Shown here: positions 8,790 to 34,131 of the stretch, piece after piece | Numbering within the stretch: the stretch's first letter is position 1 | Layout: every line of letters begins with the position of its first letter | Assembly: GCA_039588215.1 (NCBI GenBank) | Contig: JBDHAD010000039.1 | Coordinates: 4,320-68,319, forward strand | Source of the DNA: Gemmatimonadota bacterium | GTDB taxonomy: Bacteria; Gemmatimonadota; Gemmatimonadetes; Palauibacterales; Palauibacteraceae | Direction: 5' to 3' | DNA length: 64,000 bases | Program-made: the position numbers and the translations under genes | Notes under the pieces: generated by a model | The model's input: the letters and a program-made list of their open reading frames with translations, nothing else | What the model was told of the DNA's origin: nothing | Databases searched by the model: none

Positions 8790-11700
8790 ATGTCCGGTCA
8801 TCGCCGCATCACTGCCGCGCTCTCGTCCGTATTCGCGTCCGGATTCGCGCTGACGCTGATCGTCGCGCCGTCGGTCGCGCAGCAGATCTCACCCGAACGC
8901 TACGAGCAGCTCCACTTTCGCCACATCGGGCCCGTGGGGAACCGCGCGGCCTCGATAGCGGGGGTCCCCGGTGACCGCATGGTCTATTACGCGGGCGCCG
9001 CCAGCGGTGGGGTGTGGAAGACGGAAGATGCCGGGCTCCACTGGAGGCCCGTGTTCGACGACCAGCCCGTCCACGCGATCGGAGCCCTGGCGGTGACCCC
9101 ATCGGACCCCGCGATCGTGTGGGCCGGGACGGGCGAAACCTCGATTCGCTCGAACGTCTCGATCGGGAACGGCATCTGGAAGTCGACCGACGCCGGCGAG
9201 ACCTGGCGACACATGGGCCTGGAGGGCACGGGCCGGATCGGCCGGATCGTCGTCCACCCGCTGAACCCCGACATCGTGTACGCAGCCGCGCTCGGACACG
9301 CGTACGCCCCGCAACAGGAGAGGGGCGTGTATCGGACGACCGATGGCGGCACGACATGGGAGCGCGTGCTGTTCGTGGACGAGAACACGGGCGCGTACGA
9401 GATCGCCATGGACCCGTCCAACTCTCGCAAGCTGTTCGCGACGATGTGGCAGATCGATCTCAAGACCTGGGGTCGGGAGAGCGGTGGGCCCGGAAGCGGG
9501 ATCTTCGTCACGGGCGATGCCGGCGACACGTGGACGCGTCTCGAGGGCCATGGGCTTCCGACGAGGCCGGTGGGGAAGATCGCGGTGTGTATGTCGGCGG
9601 ACGACTCGCGACGCGTGTACGGGCTGATCGAGACGGGTGACGGCGTCCCGATCCATGGGGAGGAGACGGACACCGGCGAGCTGTGGCGATCCGAGGACGG
9701 GGGAGAGAGTTGGCGGCTCGTTTCGTACCACCACGATCTCGCGACCCGGCAGGCGTACTACACCCGTTGCGCGGTCTCGCCAGACGATCGGGACGAGGTC
9801 TACTTCGCCTCGTCGAGCTTCAGCTGGAGCCTGAACGGGGGTGAGACGCATACGACGACGAACTTTCTCCGCGACAAATCCTCGCCGGGGTGGGATCTCC
9901 ATGACATCTGGATCGACCCCACCGATGGCGACCGGATCGTGATGGCGTTCGACGGGGGCGTCACGCTCACCGAGAACCGGGGGGACTCCTGGTTCCGGAT
10001 GCAGCTACCGATCGCGCAGATGTACCACGTGACGGCCGACAACGCCGTGCCGTACAACGTGCTCGGGAATCGTCAGGATGGCCCCTCCTTCCGGGGCCCC
10101 TCGAACACCCGCACCGGTGGCTTGTGGGCGCGCGGTATCATCCCGCGCGGCGATTGGCGTGCGGTGGGCGGGGGCGAGAGTGGCTTCGCGACCCCCGACC
10201 CGACGGATCCGAACATCGTATGGTCCAGCGCATCGGGGTCGGGCGCGCGCGGGGGGATCGTGGTGCGGCACAACGTCGCTGCGGGACAGTTCCGAAATGT
10301 GGAAGTGTGGCCGATGTCGACCGGGGGCTGGCCGGCGGAAGGCATCCGCTACCGCTTCCAGTGGACGTTCCCGCTCCTCATCTCGCCGCACGACCGTAAC
10401 ACCATCTACGTGACGAGCCAGCACGTCCACCGGACCACCAACGGAGGACAGAGCTGGGACGTGATCAGCCCCGATCTGACGACGAACGACAAGTCGAAGC
10501 AGGGCATCTCGGGCGGGCTCACGCCCGACAACATCGGGGTGGAATACTGCTGCGTGATCTACGCGTTCGACGAATCGCCGGTCGAGCAGGGCGTCCTGTG
10601 GGCCGGCTCCAACGACGGGCTCGTGCACGTGAGCCGCGACGGCGGCGACAGCTGGGACAACGTCACGATGAACATCCCGAACCTCCCACCCGACGGTGTG
10701 GTGCGAAGCATCGACGCCTCGAAGTGGAGCGCCGGGAAGGCCTACCTCACGATCGAACACCACCAGGTCGGCGACTTCGAAGCGCGGGCCTACAAGACCG
10801 AAGACTTCGGCGAGACGTGGACGCAGATCACGAGCGGTGTGGATGACGGCCCGCTCTCCTATACACGGCACCTGCTCGAGGACCCGGTCAGACCCGGACT
10901 CCTCTACCTGGGTACCGAGGGCTCCCTGTACGTGTCGTTCGACGATGGGGCCAACTGGCAGCCGTTCATGAACAACATGCCGCACACGCCCTACTACGGG
11001 CTCTTCGTGCAGGAGCACTTCAACGACCTGGTCGTCGGCACGTACGGACGGGGGTATTGGATCCTCGACGACCTGAGCGCCATCCAGCAACTGACGAGCG
11101 ACGTGGCCGCTTCCTCCGCCCACCTGTTCGAGCCCAGGGACGCGTACCGCTTCCGGCCCACGACGGAACCCATGATCATGTTCGAGGACTGGACCCACGG
11201 CGAGAATCCGCCCAACGGAGCCTCGATCAATTACTGGCTCGGGTCGACCCCCGAGGGAGACGTGAAGATCCGGATCGAGAATGCGGCCGGCGAGACCGTG
11301 CGGGTGCTCGACGGGACGAAGCACGCCGGGATCAACCGCCTGTGGTGGAACTTCCGGGGCGAGCCGGGCACGCAGATCAAGCTCCGGACGAAGCCTCTGT
11401 ATGCGGACTGGTATCCGATGCCCGATCAGGGTTGGCGCCCCGGAGGTGGGGGAGGGTTCCTCGGAGGCGGGACGGCGGTGCTCCAGCCACCCGGCACGTA
11501 CACGGTGACACTCACCGTTGACGGGAACGAGGTGGGCAGCCAAGCGCTCACCGTGCTCAAGGACCCGAACTCGGAGGGCAGCCAGGCCGACATCCAGGCG
11601 CAGACCGCGCTGGTGGAGGAGATCGTGGACGACCTCGACTCCGCCGCGGAGTTGGTGAACCGGATCGAGCTCATCCGCCGGCAGATGTACGATCTGAAAC

Positions 11701-12655: not shown

Positions 12656-14241
12656 TGGCCCAGGATCGCGCGGATGTGCTGGTCATCGGATCGGGAGCGG
12701 CGGGTGGGGCTCTGGGCTGGCGCCTCACCGAGCTGGGGGCTCGGGTGGTCTGCCTCGAGCAGGGCGACTGGATCGCGCCCGAGACTATGGGCTCCACCGA
12801 GCCCACCTACGAAACGTATCTCCTCCGGGGAGACTGGAACCTCGAGCCCAACATTCGGAAGCGGCCCGAGGACTACCCCGTGACCACGGCGGGAGACGAC
12901 CCGCCACGCATCATGATGTTCAATGCCGTCGGTGGGACGACGATTCACTGGCAGGCCCACTTCCCGCGGTTCCACCCCTCCGATTTCCGTGCGCGCACCC
13001 TCGACGGCGTGTCGGTGGATTGGCCGATCGAGTACGCTGACCTGGTCCCGTACTACGATCGCAACGACAGCATGATGGGTGTGTCTGGTCTGGCGGGAGA
13101 TCCCGCCAACCCGCCCAGACCCGCGAGGCCCACACCTCCCCTGCCGATCGGGCGCCTGGGACGAACGCTGGTCGATGGGTTCGAGGCCCTGGGTTGGCAC
13201 TGGTGGGTCGCTGACCAGGCCATCGTTTCACAGGCGTACGAGGGGCGGGCCCCCTGCTTCCTGCATGGGAAGTGCATGTTCGGTTGCCCTATCGGGGCAA
13301 AGGCCTCGACCGATCGCGTCTACTGGCGCCCGGCGGTGGAGGGTGGCGCCGTGCTCACAACCGGGGCCCGGGTACGCGAGATCACGGTCGACCCGAACGG
13401 GCGGGCGCGCGGCGCCCTGTATTACGATGGTGACGGGAACCTGCAGGAAGCGCTCGCCCGCGTGGTCGTGGTGTGCTGCAACGGGGTCGGCACTCCGCGG
13501 CTGTTGCTCAACTCGACTTCGAACCTGTTCTCCGACGGCCTCGCCAACTCCTCGGGCATGGTGGGGAGGAACTTCATGATCCACCCGGCACGGTGGGTCG
13601 AGGGGACCTTCGAAGAGGAGATGGATGGGCACATCGGGCCGCTGGGCGTCCCGCTTTACTCGCAACAGTTTTACGAGACCGACCCGAGCCACGACTTCGT
13701 GAAAGGCTACACCCTCAACGGCGAGCGCACCTTCGGACCGCTATCACACGCGTTGTCCGTTCCCTGGGGAGAGAGCCACCACGGCATCATGAAGCGTCGC
13801 TTTCCGCACGCGGTGAGGATGAGCGTCCTGTGCGACGATCTGCCCGAGGAGCACAACCGCATCGAGCTTGATCCGGAGCTGACCGACTCGCACGGGATTC
13901 CGGCCGCGCGGGCCACCTACACGGTGAGCGAGAACACCCGGAGCATGCTCGACCACGGCCTGGAGCGGATCCGTGAAGTGCTCGAAGCCGCGGGGGCGGT
14001 GGAGATCTTGGAGCCAACCGGCACCAACATGGCTCACCTGATGGGGACGGCCAGAATGGGGGACGACCCTCGCACGTCCGTCGTCGATGCTTGGAACCGC
14101 GCCCACGACGTCCCGAACCTGTTCATCGTGGACGGAAGCTCGTTCGCGACCGGATCCGGCGTGAATCCCACCTCCACCATCGGGGCCCTGGCCTTGAGGG
14201 CCGCCGATGGGATCTGGGAGCGTCGCGGCGATTGGGTCTGA
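12655..14241 (+). CDS. GMC family FAD oxidoreductase
   Basis: IGSGAAG FAD motif, GGTTIHW, CMFGC, HLMGTARMG, NPTSTI. Confidence 0.9.
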   Translation: MAQDRADVLVIGSGAAGGALGWRLTELGARVVCLEQGDWIAPETMGSTEPTYETYLLRGDWNLEPNIRKRPEDYPVTTAGDDPPRIMMFNAVGGTTIHWQAHFPRFHPSDFRARTLDGVSVDWPIEYADLVPYYDRNDSMMGVSGLAGDPANPPRPARPTPPLPIGRLGRTLVDGFEALGWHWWVADQAIVSQAYEGRAPCFLHGKCMFGCPIGAKASTDRVYWRPAVEGGAVLTTGARVREITVDPNGRARGALYYDGDGNLQEALARVVVVCCNGVGTPRLLLNSTSNLFSDGLANSSGMVGRNFMIHPARWVEGTFEEEMDGHIGPLGVPLYSQQFYETDPSHDFVKGYTLNGERTFGPLSHALSVPWGESHHGIMKRRFPHAVRMSVLCDDLPEEHNRIELDPELTDSHGIPAARATYTVSENTRSMLDHGLERIREVLEAAGAVEILEPTGTNMAHLMGTARMGDDPRTSVVDAWNRAHDVPNLFIVDGSSFATGSGVNPTSTIGALALRAADGIWERRGDWV

Positions 14242-18518: not shown

Positions 18519-18535
18519 GCGCCCGGGAGGACTCG
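18519..18535 (-). repeat. 17-bp relic of the tRNA-Arg 3' end (older att scar)
   Basis: gcgcccgggaggactcg identical to 34059-34075 and 18624-18640. Confidence 0.7.
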
Positions 18536-18623: not shown

Positions 18624-18666
18624 GCGCCCGGGAGGACTCGAACCCCCAGCCTTCGGATCCGAAGTC
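18624..18666 (-). repeat. att direct repeat (43-bp 3' part of tRNA-Arg)
   Basis: Identical to 34059-34101. Confidence 0.95.
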
Positions 18667-20498: not shown

Positions 20499-22022
20499 GT
20501 GAGCGGGTACAGCGGTGCGCTCCGGCGACTCGACCGGGACCTCGGGGACCTCCTGGAGCACCACGATCAGGCGCGGGATCTCCGCGAGTTCGAGCGGTGG
20601 CACGATGACCCCGTGGGCTTCGTCCGGGACGTGCTCGGCGGTGTGCCCTGGAGTCGGCAAGAGGAGATCGCGGAGGCGATCAGATCGAACCCTCTGGTGG
20701 CTGTTCGCTCGTGCAACGCATCGGGAAAAGACTGGATTGCCGCGCACCTGGCCCTGTGGTGGGTCTACGCCCGGCGGGGCCTCGTTCTCCTCACGGGTCC
20801 TACGGAGCGCCAGGTCCGGGAGGTGTGCATGGGCGAGGTAGCCCGCGCTTTCCACCGGGCGAAGGATCTCCCTGGCGAACTGTTCCAGCTTGCTCTCCGG
20901 CTCGGCCAGGGCGAACAGGCGGGGATCCTGGCCTTCACGTCTACTGAGGCGAGCCGACTCACAGGCTTCCATGCCCCTCGGGTGTTCGCTGTCCTGACGG
21001 AGGCGCAGGGCTGCCAGGACTTCGCCTGGGAGAGTGTCCTGGCGTGCGCCACGGGATCGGAGGATCGGGTCCTCGCGGTGGGAAACCCGCTCTCCCCGTC
21101 CGGGCGGTTCTATCAAGTCTCGCGGCCCCGTAGCAGCTGGGCTGCCATCCAGATCAGCGCCGAGGAGCACCCAAACCTCCAAGAGGGCCGCGTGGTGATC
21201 CCTGGCGGTCCCACACCGGAGTTCGCTGCGCGCATCGCAACCGAGTACGGGCGCGGGTCCGGGATCTACCGGGCTCGGGTCCAGGGCGAGTTCCCCGACC
21301 AGGGGGATGAAGGGCTGTTCCGGCGCTCGTGGATCGAATCGGCGGCCAAGCGATGGGAGGAGTGGCGGTACACGTTCGCGGAGGAAGTGCCCGTCGTCGG
21401 TGTGGACCCCGCACGGTTCGGCCCGGACCTCACGGTGGCAGCCATCCGTCGCGGTCCCGTCGTTGAGGAGCTTCTGGCCTGGAGCCAGTCGGATCTCATG
21501 GAAACCGTTGAGAAGCTGCGGGAGCTGCTCGAAAGGGCCGGGGTGACACCTGGGGAGTGCTGGACGGGGGACACGCTGCCGGTCTCTTGGGGGAAAGGTG
21601 ATCGCCTGTTCGGACCCCGACCCCTCGCTCGCCCGCTCGCTCGCGGGACCGTGATCGTAGACGAGGTAGGGCTGGGGAGCGGGGTCCTCGACCGCTTGAA
21701 GGAGCTAGGCTTTCATGCGTTCGGCTTCAACGGCGGTTCCAGCTCCGCAGATTCGGAACGGTTCGCGAACCTCAGAGCCGAGAGCTACTGGATGCTCGCC
21801 AGGCGGTTGGAGGCCGGGGAAGTGGCACTGCCTCCCGACGAACCCCTCACCGACGAGCTGCTGGCCGTCCGGTGGCGCCCTACGCCCGAGGGGAAGATCC
21901 GCATCGAAGCCAAGGACGATCTGAGGGGCCGCCTCGGACGCTCACCCGATCGGGCCGACGCCGTGGCGATGGCTCTCTGGGAGTCAGCTGCTCGGGAGGT
22001 TGCTCCGCCCCTGGTCTGGTAG
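20499..22022 (+). CDS. terL: Terminase large subunit
   Basis: Walker A SCNASGKD, GPTERQV, Walker B-like VLTEAQG, VGNP; nuclease GVDPARFGPD, IVDEVGLG, SPDRADA. Confidence 0.85.
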   Translation: MSGYSGALRRLDRDLGDLLEHHDQARDLREFERWHDDPVGFVRDVLGGVPWSRQEEIAEAIRSNPLVAVRSCNASGKDWIAAHLALWWVYARRGLVLLTGPTERQVREVCMGEVARAFHRAKDLPGELFQLALRLGQGEQAGILAFTSTEASRLTGFHAPRVFAVLTEAQGCQDFAWESVLACATGSEDRVLAVGNPLSPSGRFYQVSRPRSSWAAIQISAEEHPNLQEGRVVIPGGPTPEFAARIATEYGRGSGIYRARVQGEFPDQGDEGLFRRSWIESAAKRWEEWRYTFAEEVPVVGVDPARFGPDLTVAAIRRGPVVEELLAWSQSDLMETVEKLRELLERAGVTPGECWTGDTLPVSWGKGDRLFGPRPLARPLARGTVIVDEVGLGSGVLDRLKELGFHAFGFNGGSSSADSERFANLRAESYWMLARRLEAGEVALPPDEPLTDELLAVRWRPTPEGKIRIEAKDDLRGRLGRSPDRADAVAMALWESAAREVAPPLVW

Positions 22023-22059
22023 GGGGGCTTCTCCCAATGCAAGCGCGCCCGGACCGCTC

Positions 22060-22084
22060 CTCACCCCGCTCCGCCACGATCTCC
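22060..22084 (+). repeat. Cargo repeat, block A only
   Basis: Core gctccgccacgatctcc (22068-22084) also at 22954-22970 and 24127-24143. Confidence 0.8.
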
Positions 22085-22127
22085 TCCGGCCTGGGCTGGG
22101 CTGCCTGGGCACACTCGCCAGCGGACC

Positions 22128-22855
22128 TCACTGGACGATCAGCGTGGCTGTGGTTGACCGCACGAGCGACCCGGAGGTTGCCGTGATCGTGAAGGTGAAC
22201 GTTCCGGTGGGCGTACCCGGCGATGGCGGCTCCGTGACACCACCGTCACCACACGCACCGTAGGCCGTCATGCTTGCCAGTACGATCACGACCGTCAGGA
22301 GCAAGCCATGCCAACTTCTGTTCCTTCTCTTCGCCGCCCGTCCTCCGAGAACGACAACGATGAGTCCCAGCCCGGGCAACCCAAGCCACAGCATCCGTTG
22401 CCACAGAGCGTACACGGGTGCGTGATCGCCCTGGTGGGCGGGCGGTGTCAAGGAAGCCGTGGGTGCCCTCGTAGCGACGGTCAGCGTCGAGGTCGCGTCG
22501 CTCAGCCCCAGCGTGAGGGTGCTCGGGGAGAAGGAGTCGGTAGTGAAAGCGGGCAGGTCAGAGCAGGTGAACGACACCGGATCTTCCGGGGAGGCGCCCA
22601 GCGGGCTGATCGTGACCGTGTAGGTGGCTGAGCCGCCTTGTGTGACCGTCACACTGCTGGGCGATGCGGCCACGGTGTAGTCGGGTAACACGACGCAGTT
22701 GGAGAACTCCGACGTGTTGTTATCCGGATCGGTCGCCGTCGCTGTCATGTACGGATCAACGGCTGCTATGGCGGTGGTTACGGTGAAGTTGGCATCACCA
22801 TTGGCGTCGGTCGTCACGCTCGCGCTACCGAGGAAGCTCTCACCCTCCCCATAGC
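22128..22855 (-). pseudogene. 3' fragment of a large surface protein (Ig-like domains plus C-terminal TM)
   Basis: Recognisable coding begins mid-motif (GYGEGESFLG...TATATDPDNNTSEFSNC) right at the repeat boundary 22856; no RBS or signal peptide seen. Confidence 0.75.
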
Positions 22856-22970
22856 CGGCCGAACGACTTTCGGGGTATCTTCGGGTGTCCGGAGCCTAGA
22901 AAACCGGCCTGCGGGCCGCTCAGGCGGTCAGAACGGGATTCTGGCTCGCTCCAGCTCCGCCACGATCTCC
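22856..22970 (+). repeat. Cargo repeat, blocks B+A (~115 bp)
   Basis: Closely similar direct repeat of 24028-24143. Confidence 0.9.
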
Positions 22971-23090
22971 TTCGCGCGGGGGAGGGCCCGTCTTGACCGA
23001 CTCCGCGGATCCTCCGCACGTTGCTTCCTATTCCCCATTCGGCTGCGGGACGCCCGCAGTGTCCAGGTACGCCCTCGCAGCCTTTCAGGA

Positions 23091-23890
23091 GTTAGGTAGC
23101 CACGCGGACAGAGGCCAATGGATAAGACCAGATCGTATCGACGATACCTGGTCGAGAGTGCGGCGATTGTGATCAGTATTCTGATCGCATTTAGCATCGA
23201 CGCTTCCTGGGATCAGTGGCAGGAGGGGCGCGAGGAGCAGCAGATACTTCGCTCGTTGCACGCTGAGCTGCTGTCGAACCAGATGCGCCTGGCTGAGCAA
23301 ACTCGATTTCACGAGGACGTTCGACTCGCCATTCGCCTTCTGTTGACCGAGGCGGCCTCTCCCACCCCCACATTGAGCGTCGATTCGCTTGACGCCCTAA
23401 TCGGGAAGGCCAGCTGGTTTAACCCCGGGAGCACGTTCGAAATGTCCGCTTACGACGCGGTCGTCCTGGGGGGAAGCCTCACCGTCATCGACAACCGATC
23501 TTTACGCCAGAGGATTACGGCGTGGAGCAGGGAGGTCGCCAGAGTCACGCGAACCGAGGCACAGGACTACGACACGTTCTCCAACGTTTGGATGCCGTTC
23601 CTTAGAGACAATGCCTACCTGCCGCAGATCCACAACGCGATCACAGTACAACCGGGAAGTGGTGACGAGAACTACATTGGTGACGAGAACTACATTCCGG
23701 ACGTACCGTTGACCCGTCATGCGACACGCCACACCGAGCTCCTCCATGATCGCCGGTTTCAGAATGTGCTGTTGCACCGGCTCTGGGTTCAAGGTGACAT
23801 CCTGCACGAGTACGAGGAGCTTACGCCGAACCTCTCGTCGCTGGTCGAGTTGCTGGCCAGCGCGATTCGTGATTAATGCGGCTACCTAAC
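23091..23890 (+). mobile_element. Integron-type gene cassette with truncated attC
   Basis: GTTAGGTAGCC (23091-23101, GTTRRRY) before the gene and its exact reverse complement GGCTACCTAAC (23880-23890, RYYYAAC) just after the stop. Confidence 0.7.
23118..23876 (+). CDS. Hypothetical protein with N-terminal TM (cassette gene)
   Basis: YLVESAAIVISILIAFSIDASW TM; visibly lower GC; 18-bp tandem duplication at 23661-23696 (GDENYI x2). Confidence 0.8.
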   Translation: MDKTRSYRRYLVESAAIVISILIAFSIDASWDQWQEGREEQQILRSLHAELLSNQMRLAEQTRFHEDVRLAIRLLLTEAASPTPTLSVDSLDALIGKASWFNPGSTFEMSAYDAVVLGGSLTVIDNRSLRQRITAWSREVARVTRTEAQDYDTFSNVWMPFLRDNAYLPQIHNAITVQPGSGDENYIGDENYIPDVPLTRHATRHTELLHDRRFQNVLLHRLWVQGDILHEYEELTPNLSSLVELLASAIRD

Positions 23891-23961
23891 ACCATTAAGA
23901 AGGACTAGGTCAAGGGTGCACAGGCAATCACCGCGACGGGCAGCGCCCGTGTTCTGGCACC

Positions 23962-24143
23962 TCAGCCGTCTCGTGCGTCCCAGACCCAACCGGTAGGGGA
24001 AAGACGACGCACTCACGCGCCCGTGGACGGCCGAGCGACTTTCGGGGTATCTTCGGGTGTCCGGCGCCGAGAAAACCCGGCCTGCGGGCCGCTCAGGCCG
24101 TCAAGAAGGGATTCTGGCTCACCCCCGCTCCGCCACGATCTCC
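23962..24143 (+). repeat. Most complete cargo repeat unit, C-spacer-B-A (~180 bp)
   Basis: C core agccgtctcgtgcgtcccagaccca (23964-23988) followed by B+A (24028-24143). Confidence 0.85.
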
Positions 24144-24159
24144 CCAGCCGCCGCGACCC

Positions 24160-26628
24160 TCACCGGATGTAGCCCAGTCTCCGCAGTTGTTCGAGCTGTT
24201 CGGGCCGCAGCTCTACCGACTGACCTCCGCCCAAAATGAGCGCCCGCAGCGCCGCGTTGGCCTCGACCTGTGCCTCGAGGAGCTTTGTGTACCGCTCTAC
24301 CAGATCCGGTCGATTTTCGTTGATCGGGCGCTCCAGCAGTGGGTCGTCCCAGAGATCGTAGACCAGCAGGCGCTCACGAGGCGGGGTCCGGCTCTTCCTG
24401 TACCCGGACTCTGTGCATCTAAACAGCGCGTCGCCGCCCCCCACGGCGATAACTTCGACCTGGGGATCGTCGGGTCGGACGCACAGCGAGGCACCCCAGC
24501 GGCCGTCGATCACCTCCATGTTTCCCACCAGCTCCCCTGAGATCACATCGATCAAGAGCATCTCCACGAACACGGGGCCGTGCTCCCACTCTTCCTCCGT
24601 GACCTGCCCCAGCAGCAGGGGCGCGAGCGAGTGGCCCTGCCGTACCTCGGGCTGGGGAAGTCCCGTCAGGTCCAGCAGCGTCGGGAGCACGTCGATCATC
24701 GACACGGGCGTGCGGATTCTCCGCCCTCCCTCGATGTGGCCGGGCCAGACGAACAGGAGTGGCACGCGAGTAGCGAATGGGTGGATGTGAGGGGCGTCTC
24801 TCGCGTGACCGGGCATGCTCCGGCCACTCCCGGCAGGATACCCGTGATCGGACGCGATCACGAGGATCGTGTTCTCCCACCGACCCTCCGCCTTGAGCCG
24901 CGCCACGAACCGCTCCAGGTGGTGGTCCTGGTGTGCCATCCCCTCATCGTAGAGGGCCTGCTGCAAGAGGGCGTGCCGCTCCACCAAGACGGTGTCCTCC
25001 CAGTCCATGGCCTCGTCCAACTCGATGTACTGGGCCCTTCGTTCCGGCGTGATGAAGAGCCCGGAGAACGGGGCCATCGGCCGAAAGGGCCGGTGCACAT
25101 CGGTCGTCTGGAAGTGCGCCCAGTAGGGGGTGCCCGGATACGCCTCCCGCCAATCCCAGAAGGCGCGGTGCAGGTGCTGGGAGGAAACGGTGGGCACGGG
25201 CGGATCGAGCACACGGACCAGGTCAACTCCGCGCTCCAGGCCCGACGCGGTCGCGGCGAAGGGGTTCGAGACGAACACGCCGGTCTGGTAGCCGACTCTG
25301 CCGAAGTGCTCGGTCATCGTCGTCACGCCGTCGGGGATCTTGTCGGATATCGAGCGGAAGCGGTCGATCGCACTGTACAGCAGGGAGGTCATGAAGGAAG
25401 ACGTGGACAGCGGCGTCGAAGTGGCGTTGCTGTACGCGCTCTCGAACACCACGGCATCCTCGGCGAGACGCTCGAGAAAGGGCGTGGTCCGCCGATTGTA
25501 CCCGTACAGGCTCATCCAGTCGGCACCGGCGCCATCGATGACGTAGAAGATCACGTCGGGATTGCCAGAAGTCCGTGAGCCCGACACCGTCGGGGCTCCC
25601 CAGAACCCCACGGCACCGGGATCCTCGGCTTCGATCTCAAGGCCCAGGGTTACCTCCCGACCCGCGTACGCCGACAGATGCGCCGTGTGTTGGACCCAAG
25701 AGCTCGGATCCGTTAGCACCTCCTCCAGCAGCCTCTCGGCAGCACCGCCCGACGACGCCACGTCCACCCGGAACGTGACGGGCTGGTCTTCGCGATGAAC
25801 CCCGAGTGCAACATCGAGGCGAGGCGCTTCGGGCAGCGCGATCCTATACTCCAGGCGTCCGGGCGCATGCCCCAGGATCGCACGCTGGAGCCGATCGCCC
25901 AGTCCGACGGTCGCGACCCCCGAGGGAACATCGGCATACACGGCGGCTTTCGGTACGACGGTGATCGAGAGTAGCTCGATGGCCGCCTCCTCCGCTTCCC
26001 TGGTGCCGGTGAACCAAACGCCGAGATGCGTCAGGGGCCCCTCTAACTCCTCGGGAGCTATCCAGTCTTCGATCCAGTCGAGTCGGTAGGACTGGACGAC
26101 GCCGTCCGTGATCACAGGCACGCCCAAACCGCTGACAACGAAGGGTATGTCGTAGTAGTAGTGTGGATTCTTTGGATCGTGGTTGAAGGCCACCCCGATG
26201 TCCCACACCGGTCCGCGGGCGCGGGCTCGAACCTCGACGTATGCCCAGTCCTGGAGGGCCAACCCCGGCGGCAGCTCCACGTAGACGGCGCCGACCGGAC
26301 TCTCCGTGCTGGGCCAGGTGCTCTGCCTGACGGCGCGGACACGCAGGGCGTCCCCACTGTAGGAGGTTTCGACACTGCCTCGTCTCTCCAGCGTGCTTGT
26401 CGGCCTCCAGCCCGGCTGGGGCTCATCGAATCGCCATTCGATCAGCTCCGGCGGGTCCCGAGGCAGCTCGAGGCCAGACGCGGTGGCAGCCTCGAGATGA
26501 TCCTCCAGGTGGAGCGGCATCTCGACCGTGAGGACGGGAGCGCCGGACGGTGCGCCCGAGCAGTTGACGAGTGAGAGGCTCAGTAGGGTGGCGGGGAGGA
26601 TCCGAATAACGACGCAACCGAGGCTCAT
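24160..26628 (-). CDS. Sulfatase/alkaline phosphatase superfamily lipoprotein
   Basis: YVIDG, TTPFL, HFQTTDVHRPF, ASDHG, VSMIDVLPT, C-terminal LRRLGYI; lipobox LVNC; GGAGG RBS. Confidence 0.85.
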   Translation of the reverse strand: MSLGCVVIRILPATLLSLSLVNCSGAPSGAPVLTVEMPLHLEDHLEAATASGLELPRDPPELIEWRFDEPQPGWRPTSTLERRGSVETSYSGDALRVRAVRQSTWPSTESPVGAVYVELPPGLALQDWAYVEVRARARGPVWDIGVAFNHDPKNPHYYYDIPFVVSGLGVPVITDGVVQSYRLDWIEDWIAPEELEGPLTHLGVWFTGTREAEEAAIELLSITVVPKAAVYADVPSGVATVGLGDRLQRAILGHAPGRLEYRIALPEAPRLDVALGVHREDQPVTFRVDVASSGGAAERLLEEVLTDPSSWVQHTAHLSAYAGREVTLGLEIEAEDPGAVGFWGAPTVSGSRTSGNPDVIFYVIDGAGADWMSLYGYNRRTTPFLERLAEDAVVFESAYSNATSTPLSTSSFMTSLLYSAIDRFRSISDKIPDGVTTMTEHFGRVGYQTGVFVSNPFAATASGLERGVDLVRVLDPPVPTVSSQHLHRAFWDWREAYPGTPYWAHFQTTDVHRPFRPMAPFSGLFITPERRAQYIELDEAMDWEDTVLVERHALLQQALYDEGMAHQDHHLERFVARLKAEGRWENTILVIASDHGYPAGSGRSMPGHARDAPHIHPFATRVPLLFVWPGHIEGGRRIRTPVSMIDVLPTLLDLTGLPQPEVRQGHSLAPLLLGQVTEEEWEHGPVFVEMLLIDVISGELVGNMEVIDGRWGASLCVRPDDPQVEVIAVGGGDALFRCTESGYRKSRTPPRERLLVYDLWDDPLLERPINENRPDLVERYTKLLEAQVEANAALRALILGGGQSVELRPEQLEQLRRLGYIR

Positions 26629-26732
26629 CGGGGTGCCTCCTGCAGATACAGCGGCTCCGGGCCCAGCCCGGGCGGGCGAGTCGCTTGGTACCACCTCGGG
26701 CGAAGGGCGTCAGCTCACGCGAAACGGGGAGT

Positions 26733-26923
26733 TGTAGAACTGATTCTCCGGAAGGTAGATGATCCGTTCGAGAAGGTCGATGCTCGTGGACGGGCTCGCG
26801 CTCCGCTCGACCAGGCGCTGCGCGAGTTCCTGGGCGGGTTCTACTTCGCTAGATCAGCGTATCAGACCTCTAACGGTACGCTGGAATAGCGCACGAAGGC
26901 GCGTGGTGTATGCTGTTCCAGCG
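26733..26923 (+). pseudogene. 3' remnant of a cassette-like ORF running into an attC-like left half
   Basis: Frame VELILRKVDDPFEK...YQTSNGTLE* reads through CTCTAAC (26868-26874); inverted repeat 26879-26890/26912-26923; no GTT right end. Confidence 0.4.
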
Positions 26924-26945
26924 AGATACGCCGGGGTAGCGGGCC

Positions 26946-26985
26946 GATTCTAAGTCCGATGCGTCTACCGTTCTGCCACCCCGCC
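26946..26985 (-). pseudogene. 5' half of tRNA-Leu(TAG)
   Basis: Reverse complement GGCGGGGTGGCAGAACGGTAGACGCATCGGACTTAGAATC gives acceptor 5' strand, Leu-type D-arm and loop CTTAGAA; no T-arm or 3' half. Confidence 0.65.
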
Positions 26986-27066
26986 CATCTAACGGACGTG
27001 CGATGCTGCTGCGGACGAGGGGGCTGAACGGGCGAGGTGCAGGCAAGAGCGAGCATAGACCCGACA

Positions 27067-27103
27067 TCAGCCGTCTCGTGCGTCCCAGACCCAGCCGGGG
27101 AGG
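27067..27103 (+). repeat. Cargo repeat, block C
   Basis: 27069-27103 identical (35/35) to 28385-28419; 25-nt core shared with 23964-23988. Confidence 0.9.
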
Positions 27104-27122
27104 AAGCTGACCTGATGTGGAA

Positions 27123-27149
27123 AGGGGCGGCCCCGGTGGAGCCGCCCCT
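27123..27149 (-). terminator. Probable terminator hairpin of the lipoprotein gene
   Basis: 9-bp stem AGGGGCGGC/GCCGCCCCT with only a short T run. Confidence 0.5.
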
Positions 27150-27184
27150 CCTGCGTTGCCCAGCGGGGTCTGAGGATTGGGCGC

Positions 27185-28114
27185 TCAGGGCACGTAGCCG
27201 TAAAGGGTGAAGACAAGATTGCCGTTGCTGAATAGACCTGGCGCTGGGTAGGTGAGGTTGACCATACGGAAACCTAGAATCGTATCCGGCCCACCGTCCG
27301 TGTTGTCCCAGCCAGAGGGCCCCCCGTTTGTGTTCAGGCCAAGCCAGTATGTGCCAGGTGCAAGGTTGATGGAGAGTCCGCTGATTTCGTAGTCGAAACC
27401 GTCGTAGGCACCGAACGGCCCTGTCGCATTCGGCGCCCGATCAGCGACAATGGTTGAGCTGAACACGGGCGGGTCAGCGTAGGGTAGTCCTGGGAATATC
27501 AGAACTTCGGTGCTGACGTATGTGGATGGGTTAAGGTCGTGCTGCTGCCAGGTGATCTTCGTTATCACCGCATTCTGAGCGAGTGTGAAGTCCTCGAACA
27601 GTTCCTGACCGCTGGCATTGTTCCTGATATTGGACTGCGGCCCCGAGAACGAACCGTTGTCGAAGAAAATCGTGGTGGGGCTGATGGGCACGCAGGCATC
27701 GTCGAACACGTAGCCCGGCATTTCGGGCACCGGCTCTCCGGGTGCAGCGTCCCCGTGTTCAATATGCGCGTCGAAGGCTGGCGCGCCGATGGTGATCGGG
27801 TTGTACGATCCGTCCGTGTTCCGGTGGCAGACTTCGACCTTGGCCTTTCCGCCGCCTCCTCCGGGGCAGTCACCATTTGTGCAAGGCGGTGGCTCCGGAG
27901 GGCAGCCACCATTTGTGCAAGGCGGTGGCTCCGGAGGGCAGCCACCATTTGTGCAAGGCGGTGGCTCTGGCGGGCAGCCACCATTTGTGCAGGGGTCTTC
28001 ATCCGCCGATATGGTGTTTGGCCAGGACTGGTCGTCTACCCCAAGCGTATCGGTCGGAGCTTGCTGACACGCAACTAAGAACAGCAGCAGAGAAAGCAGC
28101 GTAAGCCGTCTCAT
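27185..28114 (-). CDS. Lipoprotein with Cys/Pro tandem repeats
   Basis: Lipobox LVAC; CTNG[G/D]CP x4; KVEVCH...AHIEHGD motif. Confidence 0.85.
   Translation of the reverse strand: MRRLTLLSLLLFLVACQQAPTDTLGVDDQSWPNTISADEDPCTNGGCPPEPPPCTNGGCPPEPPPCTNGGCPPEPPPCTNGDCPGGGGGKAKVEVCHRNTDGSYNPITIGAPAFDAHIEHGDAAPGEPVPEMPGYVFDDACVPISPTTIFFDNGSFSGPQSNIRNNASGQELFEDFTLAQNAVITKITWQQHDLNPSTYVSTEVLIFPGLPYADPPVFSSTIVADRAPNATGPFGAYDGFDYEISGLSINLAPGTYWLGLNTNGGPSGWDNTDGGPDTILGFRMVNLTYPAPGLFSNGNLVFTLYGYVP
27864..27991. repeat. 36-bp coding tandem repeat (~3.5 copies)
   Basis: caccatttgtgca at 27871, 27907, 27943 and 27979. Confidence 0.9.
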
Positions 28115-28182
28115 CTTTGCATCTCATTCTACCGATGCAGGTAGCTGCGCCTGCCACGGCGTCCGCCTCGGGGGGAAAGGCT

Positions 28183-28310
28183 GGGCAGACGCGGAGTCGT
28201 GGCGTGCCATCGGCAGCAGCACGTCGCGGCTCAGTGTGGAATAGGACGACGATGATGCGGCTGTCTCCCCGTGCAAGTCGGGAGAAGGTCTACACGGCGT
28301 GTGGGGAAAC
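28183..28310 (-). promoter_or_regulatory. Second copy of the conserved lipoprotein upstream motif
   Basis: Two blocks matching 324-373 and 538-575. Confidence 0.65.
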
Positions 28311-28384
28311 CCTCTGAACGGGCGCATCGGCAGGCTGCGCAGCGGGATCTGGCGGTGCGGGGAGGTCCGACTGACGCTGCCTCT

Positions 28385-28419
28385 AGCCGTCTCGTGCGTC
28401 CCAGACCCAGCCGGGGAGG
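28385..28419 (+). repeat. Cargo repeat, block C
   Basis: Identical to 27069-27103. Confidence 0.9.
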
Positions 28420-28479
28420 GCGCGGAAGAAACGGAAGTGGGGCCGGGCCCCTGCTGAGGCTTGGCGGTGAGTAAATCCC

Positions 28480-29205
28480 TCACTCTTCTTTGCTCTCCGC
28501 AGCACGCACCTGCGCTGGCTTGAAGTCAACTCTCTGATAGTTCGGGACAACGCCAAGGCGAGAGAAGAACTCATCTGCAAGTCCAAGCGCGGAGTCCACA
28601 GCCCACTGGGCACATCCGGCCCCAAGGCACTTGTCTGGAAAGAAAGGATTGCCGCAGGGTTCGGGAATAAGCGAGTTCAACCGGAACTTGCCCGCGAGAT
28701 GTCTTTGCAGTGCCTGCTCGTCATAGGCGGTTGCGGTCCTCGGTTTGAAGTGCAGAAGATGGTTTCGGAGATGCACCAGAGTAGCGGCGTCTTGATGAGG
28801 GAACTGTCCCTCCGTGAAAGGCTGGCGGCTGCAAGCCACCAACGCCTGCTGGTACTTCTTTAGCATGGGGATCCGACGACCCTCGGGGCCTTCGGTTTTA
28901 TCCCAGAGACGCTTGAGGCGCCTCAAGCCGTCGGACTCAAGCTCACCGACGTATGAGTGGTGTGCGTCCGCAGCATCCTTGAGGACTTCATTGATCGCAG
29001 CCTCCAAGAACGCGGCGGATGATACGACGCCGCTGGTTACATAGGCCCGCTGCTCGATGTCAAAGACGGGTGTAGACGCTTCAAGTGCCTTCTCCCGGCA
29101 AGCGGCTTCACGAGCGAAACGGAGCGCAGCCCAGAGATGATAGCTGGAGTAGTAGACTCTCATAGCGGGCATCACGCTTCCGGCCTGAGCCTGGATTTTG
29201 GCCAT
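28480..29205 (-). CDS. HEPN-like hypothetical protein
   Basis: SAAFLEAAINE helix and RNHLLH (RxxxxH); ATG 29205 assumed. Confidence 0.65.
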   Translation of the reverse strand: MAKIQAQAGSVMPAMRVYYSSYHLWAALRFAREAACREKALEASTPVFDIEQRAYVTSGVVSSAAFLEAAINEVLKDAADAHHSYVGELESDGLRRLKRLWDKTEGPEGRRIPMLKKYQQALVACSRQPFTEGQFPHQDAATLVHLRNHLLHFKPRTATAYDEQALQRHLAGKFRLNSLIPEPCGNPFFPDKCLGAGCAQWAVDSALGLADEFFSRLGVVPNYQRVDFKPAQVRAAESKEE

Positions 29206-29275
29206 GATTCCAGGGAGATAGGGTTGGCTCGTGTCCTTGCGCACTCCTTGTCGAGTGGCTAGCCGTTGAGACGGC

Positions 29276-29851
29276 CTACTGGATCTTGGGCATTCGCTCC
29301 CACGCCCGCCCAGCGATTTTTTCGCCAATGCTGCGGGTGAGTTCGATAAACTCGTCGACTGCCTCCTCACCGATTTCGAGGTCCGGATCATGCGCCGCAG
29401 CGTTGCGCAAGTTCCGTAGCCGTCCCAGCGCCTGTGCCCCCCGTTCGCTGAGCAGCTCACCATGTCGCAGAGCTGTTAGTAGCTTCGGAAACGGTACAGC
29501 GCCGTCGGGTGGAATCAGGTCAAGAGTCCGAACTGACGAGATCGCACTTGTCTCCATGCCGATCCACGCCTCGATGATTGCTGTCCGAGGCGACGTCTCA
29601 CCGACTGCCCGGTAGTAATCAGCGGCCTCTTGGTCGGCCTGGAGCTTCTTGGCGTCAGTAGCGGGTTTGATTTGCTGACGCACGGCCGCCAACTCCTGGC
29701 CAAACTCGACCTCAAGACCTTTGTATCGGAGGCGGTTCAAGTTAGGTAGCAAGGCGCGGAGGGGTCGCCGGAATAGTACGAGAACCGTGACCAGAGCCGC
29801 TGGCCACGCTAACGAATCAACGAGTGCGGCGACGAAGTTTAGGATTTCCAC
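29276..29851 (-). CDS. TM-anchored HEPN-like protein
   Basis: N-terminal TM (LAWPAALVTVLVLF), SPRTAIIEAW, RNAAAH; GTG 29851 assumed. Confidence 0.65.
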   Translation of the reverse strand: MEILNFVAALVDSLAWPAALVTVLVLFRRPLRALLPNLNRLRYKGLEVEFGQELAAVRQQIKPATDAKKLQADQEAADYYRAVGETSPRTAIIEAWIGMETSAISSVRTLDLIPPDGAVPFPKLLTALRHGELLSERGAQALGRLRNLRNAAAHDPDLEIGEEAVDEFIELTRSIGEKIAGRAWERMPKIQ

Positions 29852-29924: not shown

Positions 29925-30695
29925 CTATAACCTCTTCTTCCGCCGCACGATCCCTCCTTCCACCCGAGGCTCACGGGGCTCGCTTGCCGTGGCTTCTCGC
30001 CATTCTTCCAGCCACTTAGTGAGAGATGACGCGCGCCGTTCGTCTTGATCGTGGTCTGAGTCTCGGAGCTTCGGGAGTGGCGACCGAGGCCAGGTGGTCA
30101 GCGGCTCGCCCTTGTGGAGTACCGGGATCAAAACCTCCAGGGCGGCAATGGCCCTATCTAGGTAGAGGACGAGGTTCGCAACCGCATTCGATTGCAGAGG
30201 CAGGTGAAGACCCCACGCCCTTTGGGGAAGTAGGAGTAGCTGGACGAGATCATCGGCAATAGCAAGCCGTTGTTCCTCCCACCCTGGCGGATCTTCTTTC
30301 CAGAGAACGCGCGCTCCTGGTACCTGGAGCGTGTAGTCAATCCAGAGGTCTCGGAACCGACGTTTTAGCGAACGCGGAAGAGCTTCGAGCCACGGATAGC
30401 GAGCGCAGAGCGCCAACAGGTCTTGCTCCAGTGGGCGATGCTTCTCCAAGCCCTGCTCTTGTGCCGTCATCTCGCCTTCGCCAGCGACGAGCCACGCGAG
30501 GCGCACCCCCAGCTCATTGGCGGCGGCCTCTAGGAACTCCAGCCCCGGCATCGTGCCACCCTGCAAATAGCCGTGGACACTGGCGTAGCTTTTCGACCCC
30601 GGGACATCCCGCTCCTTCAAAGTGAGGTGCAACTTCCTGATGGTGTAACCCTGCTCGTCAAGCGCCCGCCTGAGTCTCTCCTGGATCGCACCCAC
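29925..30695 (-). CDS. XRE-like HTH repressor with C-terminal extension
   Basis: SVHGYLQGGTMPGLEFLEAAANELGVRLAWLVAGEGEM; divergent from the rep/int run. Confidence 0.7.
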   Translation of the reverse strand: MGAIQERLRRALDEQGYTIRKLHLTLKERDVPGSKSYASVHGYLQGGTMPGLEFLEAAANELGVRLAWLVAGEGEMTAQEQGLEKHRPLEQDLLALCARYPWLEALPRSLKRRFRDLWIDYTLQVPGARVLWKEDPPGWEEQRLAIADDLVQLLLLPQRAWGLHLPLQSNAVANLVLYLDRAIAALEVLIPVLHKGEPLTTWPRSPLPKLRDSDHDQDERRASSLTKWLEEWREATASEPREPRVEGGIVRRKKRL

Positions 30696-32449: not shown

Positions 32450-32704
32450 ATGAATAGAGAGCAACTCTCGAACGCGGTTGCCGAGGCCGTCAGGCGGACC
32501 CCGAGCAGCATCCGAAGACTCGCCCGCGAGGTTGGTGTGTCGCACGTCATGCTGCTCCAGGTCCGAGACGGTGAACGCCCGGCTCCGCCTGCTCTGGCTG
32601 AACGGATCGCCACGATCATGGAGGGCTGGGGTGAGGAACTGGCGGATCTCGCCCACGGGATCCGGGAGGCGCTCGATGCGGAGCCCCCATCCGAGGAGGA
32701 CTGA
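32450..32704 (+). CDS. Small Cro/XRE-like HTH protein coupled to the integrase
   Basis: SIRRLAREVGVSHVMLLQVRDGER; TGATG overlap with int. Confidence 0.65.
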   Translation: MNREQLSNAVAEAVRRTPSSIRRLAREVGVSHVMLLQVRDGERPAPPALAERIATIMEGWGEELADLAHGIREALDAEPPSEED

Positions 32705-33948
32705 TGGCGCGGAAACGATGGAAGTGGGGCGTCGGACCACGAGGAGCCAGGGTGCGGGTGGCGGAGCGAAACTGGGGCGGCTCGGTCTATCTGTACGCTT
32801 GGAACCCGGAAAGCGGTGGCCCCGACATGCGCTCGCTCGGGTTCCGTGTCCGTGATGCGGACGGGCGGCTAATCTCGGAGGCCGTCGTGGAAGCGAAGCG
32901 GCAGGCATCGAACCTCTCGAACCTTCTAATCCGCAAGGAGCGTCCGACGCGCATTGTGACCGTCGCGGACCTGTTCCGCCTGTTCCAGCGGGATGAGGTA
33001 GCAGCGTTACACGGGAAACACGGTGACGAGACCGAGCGCGCGTTGGAGGCGTGGAAGCGATTTCTGGGGTCTCGGACACCCGTTGAGCGAGTAGGGGTGC
33101 GCGAGTGGAAGGCGTACAGTCGCGATCGCGCAAGCGGCGAGATGGACGCACGCGGCGGCCGGGTTTCTAACCCTGAAAAGCGTCGCCCGGTCGGACCCCG
33201 GACAGTTGCGAAGGATCTCAAAGTGCTCAGGCAAGCGTGCATCTTCGGCACGCGCTACCGGACCCGTGACGGGGGCTTCCTCCTTCGGGTGGACCCAACG
33301 CGGGGCCTCCCCCTCCCGTCTGAGAAGAACCCGGCCCGACCCGTAGCCGACGATGCGACCCTGACCGCGCTCATGGAGAAGGCCGCCAACGTGACAATGC
33401 GGCACGGTTCGGACGAGGTGCGGACGCCGCTGCGCGAGTTGCTTATCCTCGCCGCCTATACCGGCCGCCGGATCGGGAGCATCCTCGCTCTGCGCTGGTC
33501 GGATTGGCGACCCGACGAAGGAACTCACGGTGCGATGCGCTGGCGGGCCGACGCGGACAAACTTGGTCGCGAATGGTGGACCCCGGTGCATCCCGCTGTC
33601 CGCGGGACGCTGGAAGCCTGGCGGGCGGCGAGCCCAGGGCTTGGCGAGACCTGGGTCTTTCCAGCCCCTGAGAGCCATGGGCCAATCCGCGTGGACGTGG
33701 CTCGGCGGTGGCTCCTCCACGCAGAGAAGAAAGCTCGGATTCCGCATCGCCAGGGGTTCGGGTTCCACGCGTTTCGGCGCATGTGGGCCACGAAGCGAAA
33801 GCACTTGAGCCCGACGGACGTAGCGCACGTGGGTGGCTGGAAAGACACCGCCACCCTCCAGCGGGTCTACCAGCAGCCCGACCCCGACACGATGGAGGAC
33901 GTCGTACTCGGTGACCGGGAGCTTCGCTTCGGGGGCGGCGGCCGGTGA
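32704..33948 (+). CDS. int: Tyrosine recombinase / integrase
   Basis: YTGRR (R), HAFRR (HxxR), GGW, RVY (Tyr); ends ~110 bp from att. Confidence 0.9.
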   Translation: MARKRWKWGVGPRGARVRVAERNWGGSVYLYAWNPESGGPDMRSLGFRVRDADGRLISEAVVEAKRQASNLSNLLIRKERPTRIVTVADLFRLFQRDEVAALHGKHGDETERALEAWKRFLGSRTPVERVGVREWKAYSRDRASGEMDARGGRVSNPEKRRPVGPRTVAKDLKVLRQACIFGTRYRTRDGGFLLRVDPTRGLPLPSEKNPARPVADDATLTALMEKAANVTMRHGSDEVRTPLRELLILAAYTGRRIGSILALRWSDWRPDEGTHGAMRWRADADKLGREWWTPVHPAVRGTLEAWRAASPGLGETWVFPAPESHGPIRVDVARRWLLHAEKKARIPHRQGFGFHAFRRMWATKRKHLSPTDVAHVGGWKDTATLQRVYQQPDPDTMEDVVLGDRELRFGGGGR

Positions 33949-34057: not shown

Positions 34058-34131
34058 CGCGCCCGGGAGGACTCGAACCCCCAGCCTTCGGATCCGAAGT
34101 CCGACGCTCTATCCAGTTGAGCTACGGGCGC
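34058..34131 (-). tRNA. tRNA-Arg(TCG), CCA not encoded
   Basis: GCGCCCG acceptor, TAGCTCAACTGGATAGAGC D-arm, TCGGA-CTTCGGA-TCCGA anticodon arm, GGTTCGAGTCC T-arm; 74 nt. Confidence 0.95.

Follow-up and report, generated by a model that had tools for sequence, protein, structure and literature searches.

Junction, terminator and leader repeats that may let whole gene units be reshuffled in an integrative element of a Gemmatimonadota bacterium

The window, by which we mean the whole stretch of DNA that was analysed, comprises 64,000 nucleotides from a Gemmatimonadota bacterium (GenBank assembly GCA_039588215.1, contig JBDHAD010000039.1), and coordinates without a contig name are window positions. 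Between 22060 and 28419 it holds copies of three short repeat blocks, A, B and C, with genes between them, and this 6.4-kb stretch belongs to the cargo of an integrative element, 15.4 kb long, in a tRNA-Arg gene. We give an even chance to the reading that modular junction, terminator and leader repeats let whole gene units be reshuffled in this integrative element, which would also have picked up an integron fragment. The window was compared with a set of 41 genomes of relatives that includes the genome of the window itself (G000), two congeners (G001 and G002) and a member of the sister genus (G015). Completeness is 85–91% for the three genomes of the genus and 85% for the window's own. The pieces of the stretch are as follows.

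22060-22084, plus strand: block A, copy 1 (A only), which on the minus strand lies 43 nt past the stop of the open reading frame (ORF) 22128-22817
22128-22817, minus strand: 5′-truncated surface-protein gene; the start is absent and only the C-terminal part with an invert_tail domain is left (NF058595, 88 bits)
22848-22970, plus strand: B-A module, copy 1, with a minus-strand intrinsic terminator at 22918-22905
22982-23097, plus strand: attI-like site ending G/TTAGGT, homologous to the stretch between the deleted intI and the first cassette on contig C153 of G002
23118-23876, plus strand: single integron-type cassette ORF, 252 aa, no family; the cassette ends form a 14-nt inverted repeat (23088-23101 and 23880-23893)
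23880-23956, plus strand: attC of the cassette, apparently truncated, with an R″-type box ACCTAAC at 23884-23890
23964-24005, plus strand: block C, copy 1, 76% identical to the reference copy beyond the core
24001-24143, plus strand: B-A module, copy 2, including the "spacer", with a minus-strand terminator at 24091-24078; its A ends 16 nt from the sulfatase stop
24160-26694, minus strand: sulfatase gene (PF00884, 6e-34)
26744-27068, plus strand: leader module Lead3/D3 (325 nt), upstream of the sulfatase gene; 8 places in the genome
27069-27110, plus strand: block C, copy 2
27111-27156, plus strand: hairpin module H1, which terminates the lipoprotein gene; this genome has it at 11 places on 9 contigs, and G015 has many copies
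27185-28114, minus strand: lipoprotein gene, with a lipoprotein-type signal peptide and a hairpin after the gene
28120-28240, plus strand: leader F of the lipoprotein gene; 8 places in the genome
28241-28384, plus strand: leader D1 of the lipoprotein gene; 8 places in the genome
28385-28426, plus strand: block C, copy 3
28439-28451, minus strand: terminator-like hairpin of ORF 28480-29463
28480-29463, minus strand: ORF of 327 aa, no family, first unit of the minus-strand row

When the minus strand is followed from 29463 to 22023, these pieces come in the order 327-aa ORF, hairpin H2, C; D1/F, lipoprotein gene, H1, C; Lead3, sulfatase gene, A-terminator-B, C; then the integron relic, which is inverted; then a second A-terminator-B abutting the truncated surface-protein gene; and last A alone beside the end of the terminase-like gene of the element. 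On our reading the minus strand would be a row of self-contained units, each with its own leader (F/D1 or Lead3), ORF and terminator (hairpin H1/H2 or B-A), in which C (35–58 bp) follows each of the three intact units and a single inverted integron relic breaks the row.

The blocks had first been picked out in a reading of the letters of this DNA, which we call the original prediction, and our repeat search and shuffled controls agree with it on the places of A, B and C, their common plus orientation and the existence of shared edges. The search returned the three C copies at 76–100% identity to the reference copy, two B+A copies (22848-22970 and 24020-24143, plus strand) that are 89–90% identical, and A alone at 22065-22084 on the plus strand, within the block 22060-22084. 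A 21-mer core of C starts at 23967, 27072 and 28388 and is preceded each time by AGC, and a 17-mer core of A ends at 22084, 22970 and 24143, an exact right edge. Each core is present three times in the window against 0.00 expected from 100 dinucleotide-preserving shuffles. The shared left edge that had been claimed for C is exact at the start of the three window copies, but it is less sharp elsewhere, where at least 12 copies are conserved about 23 nt further left. The pieces between repeat copies are unrelated, as had been said: a truncated surface-protein gene, an attI-like site with a cassette ORF, a sulfatase gene and a lipoprotein gene.

What did not survive is the idea of a single 180-bp unit, C-spacer-B-A, that was duplicated and eroded. 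A 211-nt query with this "unit" matches many contigs of the window's own genome, and C and B-A prove to be independent families, at 17 and 5 places here, that are adjacent only once. The five B-A places lie on three contigs, and four of the copies align over about 120–145 nt. The "spacer" between C and B is common to the copy on contig C50, so we assign it to the B-A module. Because B-A is a separate family and the spacer is common to the C50 copy, "C-spacer-B-A" is two modules side by side; C and B-A are two lineage-specific intergenic families, scattered over this genome and its congeners, that happen to adjoin after the sulfatase gene.

The mechanism put forward with that unit had repeated insertions striking it at an A/C junction, with duplication and erosion, to give something like a repeat-spacer array. 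We consider this very improbable. It would suit the common orientation of all copies and their order (A, B-A, C-B-A, C, C), which resembles nested erosion, and on a terminase-bearing element of contig C5 of G015 an A copy, 27 nt long and 100% identical, likewise precedes C amid other genes. The two families nevertheless differ in copy number and locations; identity between the two B-A copies is only 89–90%; A, B-A and C are each explained by their position relative to the minus-strand genes; and the repeats are dispersed genome-wide. Such dispersal, which the original prediction had itself named as fatal to its model, was found for C, for B-A and for other intergenic pieces of the region. No A abuts C among this genome's matches, no dedicated search for such empty sites having been made, and insertion at an A/C junction stands unsupported as a mechanism. 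Unlike a CRISPR-like array, the window has repeats 0.8–3.1 kb apart, and its "spacers" are whole genes.

C is confined to a small group of genomes. With at most two mismatches in 21 nt, 16 copies lie on nine contigs of G000 (one degenerate copy makes up the 17 places), nine in G001, two in G002 and one in G015; C was not found at this threshold in the other 37 of the 41 genomes, and the reversed pattern, used as a control, gave 0. An exact 20-mer of C was found across 185,579 species genomes in eight stretches, all in four Gemmatimonadota bins, and a metagenome scan for C gave two short contigs. The A 17-mer has exact matches in G000 (four), G002 (one), G015 (two) and G020 (one). When one mismatch was allowed, A appeared to reach 35 of the 41 genomes, which we dismissed as noise, the reversed control also matching many genomes.

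Where C sits relative to genes is strongly polar. We took 29 copies from all sequences available and scored the nearest credible ORF on each side. Of 28 such ORFs on the right, 24 run antisense to C, the median distance to the stop being about 110 nt; of 26 on the left, 21 run antisense, and here the median distance to the start is about 250 nt. Along the gene strand an ORF is therefore followed by a terminator module (H1, H2 or B-A), then by C, then by a leader (D, F) and the next ORF, and C is located outside transcription units. The arrangement F, D, C, H1 recurs unchanged in every locus. The flanks of C assort independently, since 16 copies with one right-flank family carry at least three left-flank classes, and 17 copies of the largest left-flank family carry at least four right-flank classes. 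On our reading C would fill the space between transcription units, past one terminator and before the next leader, with no stable hairpin of its own. In three copies an insertion sequence of the IS481 family stands at CTAG directly left of C (contig C34 of G000, 9407-10333; contig C42 of G000, about 63830; contig C70 of G001, locus L072, 1-115); IS481 prefers CTAG targets, and this suggests that the C junction is a preferred IS481 target.

The same repeats delimit other genes elsewhere, which bears out an expectation of the original prediction. Contig C53 of G001 carries four co-oriented C copies, an array of four units, at spacings of 822–1232 nt around ORFs of 154, 156 + 164 and 228 aa, with intergenic gaps of about 130–145 nt; two of these ORFs are SnoaL/DUF4440 proteins. 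The sister element on contig C5 of G015 has, in this order and with other genes between, a terminase pseudogene, H1, F, the 27-nt exact A, a D-C block, integrase fragments and a tRNA-Val gene. Elsewhere in G015 (locus L095), F leader, small signal-peptide ORF and H1 hairpin are arranged around eight unrelated ORFs in 9.4 kb with no C, so that gene-unit arrays are independent of C. Orthologues of the sulfatase, 85% identical, lie on contig C17 of G015 and contig C38 of G002, with homology restricted to 24162-26600, and the G015 orthologue has H1 at the position where the window has B-A and C. When five G001 loci were compared with G000 by blastn, only module-sized matches were found within arrays. 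The broad idea that repeats delimit swapped gene units holds.

Because unrelated genes share interchangeable leader, terminator and junction modules, we infer from the mosaic structure and the independent assortment that recombination between modules builds the arrays. Such recombination, whether homologous or driven by a dedicated enzyme, would join, swap and delete whole gene units and leave related species with arrays of wholly different content; its breakpoints would be seen in the truncated copies (A alone, B-A without C).

Several points weigh against this reading. We found no genome pair that differs by exactly one unit with breakpoints in modules, and the arrays of G000 and G001 share only module-sized matches. 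Between species with about 80–85% identity in coding DNA, C remains 93–100% conserved over 35 nt, and conservation of this degree calls for a sequence-specific function, protein binding or base pairing, that module recombination leaves unnamed. The contig derives from a bin of short reads, and the arrangement of the pieces from 22060 to 28419 rests on that assembly. Finally, the 9 nt after C on the gene strand (TAGGTAGCC), in seven exact copies and one with a single change, match exactly the start of the cassette behind the attI-like site, and this identity points to a real link between the C junction and integron-type junctions.

The integron cassette had been correctly recognised: the window holds an attI-like site followed by a cassette ORF, and the relic as a whole (attI-like site, cassette, truncated attC) is inverted relative to the C row. 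Homologues of the attI-like site lie on contig C16 of G000, also before a cassette, and on contigs C153, C141, C41 and C38 of G002, so that the site is present twice in G000 and four times in G002. The copies aligned to 22982-23097 all end GAGTTAGG or a near variant. Several attI-like sites in the genus (e.g., contig C16 of G000, 13999-14053) each still stand before one cassette, SnoaL-like or glyoxalase-like, and the cassette behind the attI of contig C153 of G002 encodes a SnoaL/DUF4440 protein. On the same contig (locus L093, 6847-7215) intI has an in-frame internal deletion that keeps 93 N-terminal residues and the conserved C-terminal motif. The attC of the window cassette retains its 5′ box, gives no end-to-end fold and looks truncated; its body (23887-23934) recurs on contig C101 of G002 beside C, in the opposite relative orientation.

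For IntI we required its specific extra domain and a score above the TIGR02249 cut-off. Intact IntI above this curated cut-off is present in 7 of the 41 relatives, where the same kind of stretch lies downstream of intI, co-oriented and ending GTTAGG; the intI genes of the clade are co-oriented with their cassettes. In the three genomes of the genus, which are 85–91% complete, no IntI scored above the cut-off, and none was found in the window, as had been noted. The best match in the window's own genome, on contig C18 (117 + 103 bits), is without model positions 176-232, and tblastn with six IntI proteins of relatives against that genome returned only the C18 protein and two weaker tyrosine recombinases. 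To judge by these sequences, the genus carries what appear to be decayed integron platforms without a detected IntI. We also considered B as the 3′ end of a deleted intI, as it contains a "GVRS" frame resembling the IntI C-terminus, and dropped this when tblastn of seven IntI proteins against 22000-28700 gave nothing below E 0.1.

These findings bear on whether C is itself an attC. An attC has a 3′ box GTTRRRY, with crossover after the G, and a complementary 5′ box RYYYAAC. GTT stands at the junction in 0 of 16 C copies in the genome, which have GCT, GCC or other triplets instead, and no complementary partner box was seen by eye opposite C in the printed flanks. The three window copies with their flanks, folded on both strands against 200 shuffles each, fold no better than the shuffles (z −0.69 to +0.69), whereas the positive control, a 116-nt attC beside an intact intI in another relative (G034), forms an end-to-end fold (z −2.13 and −1.30). 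C does resemble an attC in lying after the 3′ end of an ORF (24 of 28) and in being co-oriented in arrays (four copies on contig C53 of G001). With no fold and no GTT box, C is not a canonical attC, and we conclude that it is not an attC. Some other enzyme may use it. Custom attC scans with box consensus sequences gave one convincing attC, that of G034, and otherwise GC-rich noise, and were not used as evidence.

We rate as unlikely, though it is the foremost of the alternatives, that C serves for crossover in a cassette system that is, or was until recently, active, either an integron relative with non-canonical sites or another double-strand site-specific recombinase, by which promoter-equipped gene units are captured at the junction just left of C. 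Such a system would explain the co-oriented arrays with their cassette-like spacing on contig C53 of G001, whose SnoaL/DUF4440 ORFs are of the kind found behind the attI of contig C153 of G002, as well as the position of C after an ORF, the independent assortment of its flanks and the fact that array content common between congeners consists of modules only. C is genus-specific, and the attC sites of sedentary chromosomal integrons are homogeneous and likewise genus-specific. Integron platforms are common in the clade, as the seven IntI genomes, the deleted intI and the attI-like sites attest, TAGGTAGCC after the junction is the start of the window cassette behind attI, and a role at the DNA level is the more natural one for a repeat outside transcription units. 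Against this stand the absence of GTT at the junction in 16 copies and of a partner box by eye, the shuffle-like folding of C and its flanks beside the end-to-end fold of the canonical G034 attC, and the failure to find an IntI above cut-off in the three genomes of the genus (85–91% complete). G015, moreover, has arrays of the same build without C; IS481-family elements inserted at the junction CTAG account for three of the sharp left edges; and in at least 12 copies conservation runs 23 nt left of C.

A comparison with integron cassette arrays that lack an integrase (clusters of attC sites lacking integron-integrases, CALIN) and with sedentary chromosomal integrons cuts both ways. The likeness lies in co-oriented, unrelated and mostly small genes, each followed by a lineage-specific repeat, in the complete turnover of content between related species, and in the integron parts that are present (attI-like site, cassette, the deleted intI of a congener, IntI in relatives). 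In contrast to these arrays, C is without GTT/AAC boxes and without a single-strand fold, the units have their own long leaders and terminators, and the relic attI and cassette run opposite in direction to the C row. A more specific form of the cassette proposal is a shade more doubtful again: that one Gemmatimonadota genus has an uncharacterised system of double-strand site-specific recombination which crosses over at the 58-bp form of C and strings together promoter- and terminator-equipped units. Such a system would be a functional analogue of the integron without a folded attC or IntI. Its origin may lie in integron junctions, given the match between a canonical cassette start and what follows the junction.

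The same polarity and conservation could be read at the RNA level. There is a slim chance that C forms the conserved body of a small or antisense RNA encoded in multiple copies, transcribed from the window plus strand, convergent with the neighbouring gene and ending at a shared hairpin (H1, H2 or another). A GC-rich hairpin does lie about 10–60 nt after C in most copies, the orientation to genes is strictly polar, high conservation without structure fits a base-pairing seed, and a promoter could lie to the left of C, where 17 of 34 copies are conserved. Yet a sigma-70 promoter scan gave 0 sites in 21900-29600, C has no Rfam family match, and a role as terminators of the convergent genes accounts for the hairpins. 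Rfam at gathering score returned only the tRNA-Arg for the whole window, and at E up to 5 the region 21900-28700 gave two chance-level matches. As a single structured RNA, F-D1-C was tried and set aside: single-sequence folds gave z +0.88 and +0.30, and RNAalifold of ten copies gave local pairs only.

Equally slim, in our estimate, is the chance that the repeats are extragenic palindromes of the REP/BIME type (repetitive extragenic palindromes and bacterial interspersed mosaic elements) or remnants of miniature inverted-repeat transposable elements, spread by a transposase and with no part in array building. REP and BIME sequences are imperfect palindromes of 20–40 nt in many copies with a cognate Y1 transposase (REP-associated tyrosine transposase, RAYT). 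Like those of enterobacteria and pseudomonads, the repeats here form short, lineage-specific motif families in fixed order, extragenic, polar (mostly 3′ of genes) and mosaic with other motifs. They differ in that C is not a significant palindrome (z about 0), has only 17 copies, which are clustered in accessory arrays with no inverted pairs seen, and has no Y1 transposase beside its copies; the single Y1 transposase of the genome (PF01797) is on contig C1, which has no C. Nor was a Tn3-family transposase found in the genus. A possible resemblance of C to a Tn3-type terminal repeat was dropped when PF01526 had no match in G000, G001 or G002.

The leader modules deserve mention in their own right. 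F (about 100 nt) immediately precedes the Shine-Dalgarno sequence of genes for secreted proteins and lipoproteins and is also present at 324-373 of the window; besides its eight places in the genome there are dozens in G015, as co-oriented arrays with the H1 hairpin (L095, contig C19, 2372-11739). Its 5′ half is invariant, its middle variable, and its 3′ half can pair back, with one double compensatory change. F is a candidate for a new cis-regulatory leader or a portable promoter module. D1 (28241-28384, and modules m3 and m5 of L095) has two direct T-rich/CCC repeats about 22 nt apart, seen by eye in alignments, which could be a regulator binding site. Within the lipoprotein gene, three 36-nt tandem repeats (27864-27994) encode a proline/cysteine-rich repeat. 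The frame of the truncated surface-protein gene is open to about 22895, within block B, and this ORF is the sole match in the genome above cut-off to NCBIfam NF058595 ("invert_tail", lipo-invert putative C-terminal anchoring domain); a literature search for "lipo-invert" did not find the term.

The element that carries the stretch is bounded and equipped as follows.

18624-18666, strand not assigned: far attachment repeat, an exact 43-bp copy of the tRNA-Arg 3′ half (34059-34101)
20499-22022, plus strand: terminase large subunit-like gene (phrog_2, 2.2e-27)
29925-30695, minus strand: helix-turn-helix (HTH) repressor-like gene, by profile match
32704-33948, plus strand: tyrosine integrase gene adjoining tRNA-Arg
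34058-34131, minus strand: tRNA-Arg (TCG), the integration target

Further genes between the attachment copies are an HTH_17 excisionase-like gene, a NikA-like gene and a DUF4145 gene. We place the stretch in the cargo of an integrative element because of the 43-bp repeat, this gene content and a lower third-position GC of ORFs, 0.65–0.81 inside the element against mostly 0.78–0.89 outside. A direct repeat of a tRNA 3′ end with an adjacent tyrosine integrase is the hallmark of such elements. The resemblance to tRNA-targeting integrative elements and phage satellites extends to the excisionase- and repressor-like genes, the lone terminase-like gene and the low third-position GC, but it covers the vehicle only, A, B and C being unrelated to the attachment repeat. 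For the same reason the alternative raised in the original prediction, that A, B and C are the ends of successive integrative elements, does not fit. A second exact copy of the tRNA-Arg 3′ end, 17 nt long, lies at 18519-18535, about 90 nt outside the 43-bp repeat, and may be the trace of an earlier tandem element.

Related terminase genes were found in five other genomes of the 41 searched (G000 included), among them G021, G015, G014 and G037. On contig C5 of G015 (locus L098) the terminase-like pseudogene at 6983-8374 has one in-frame TAG, integrase fragments lie on both sides of the tRNA-Val gene, and beyond that gene there is a second, intact integrase with an excisionase, an arrangement which indicates that the site probably held tandem or replaced elements.

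The one public DNA run listed as sharing words with the window, a sediment metagenome kept as contigs (X1), contains 0.07 of the sampled window words; no RNA run was listed. Its contigs align chiefly to the sulfatase family and the F-D1-C repeats and differ there at many positions, and they therefore represent relatives, not the window strain. In one X1 contig, 22091 and 27123 are linked through 16 other letters; we did not count it as an excision product, as one side is only 22 nt long and the likeness is 88%. A literature search on integrons and attC in Gemmatimonadetes, judged by titles and the starts of abstracts, gave nothing on such arrays.

If the ordinary reading holds, in which interchangeable junction, terminator and leader modules recombine, its message is mainly one of caution: repeat-delimited "arrays" can arise anywhere, and they break short-read assemblies. 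The work adds undescribed intergenic repeat families (C, B-A, H1, F and D), none with an Rfam match, as well as a candidate conserved leader of secreted-protein genes and evidence for what appear to be decayed integron platforms in a genus without a found IntI. Should C instead be a recombination site, this genus would hold a second, structurally different solution to gene-cassette capture.

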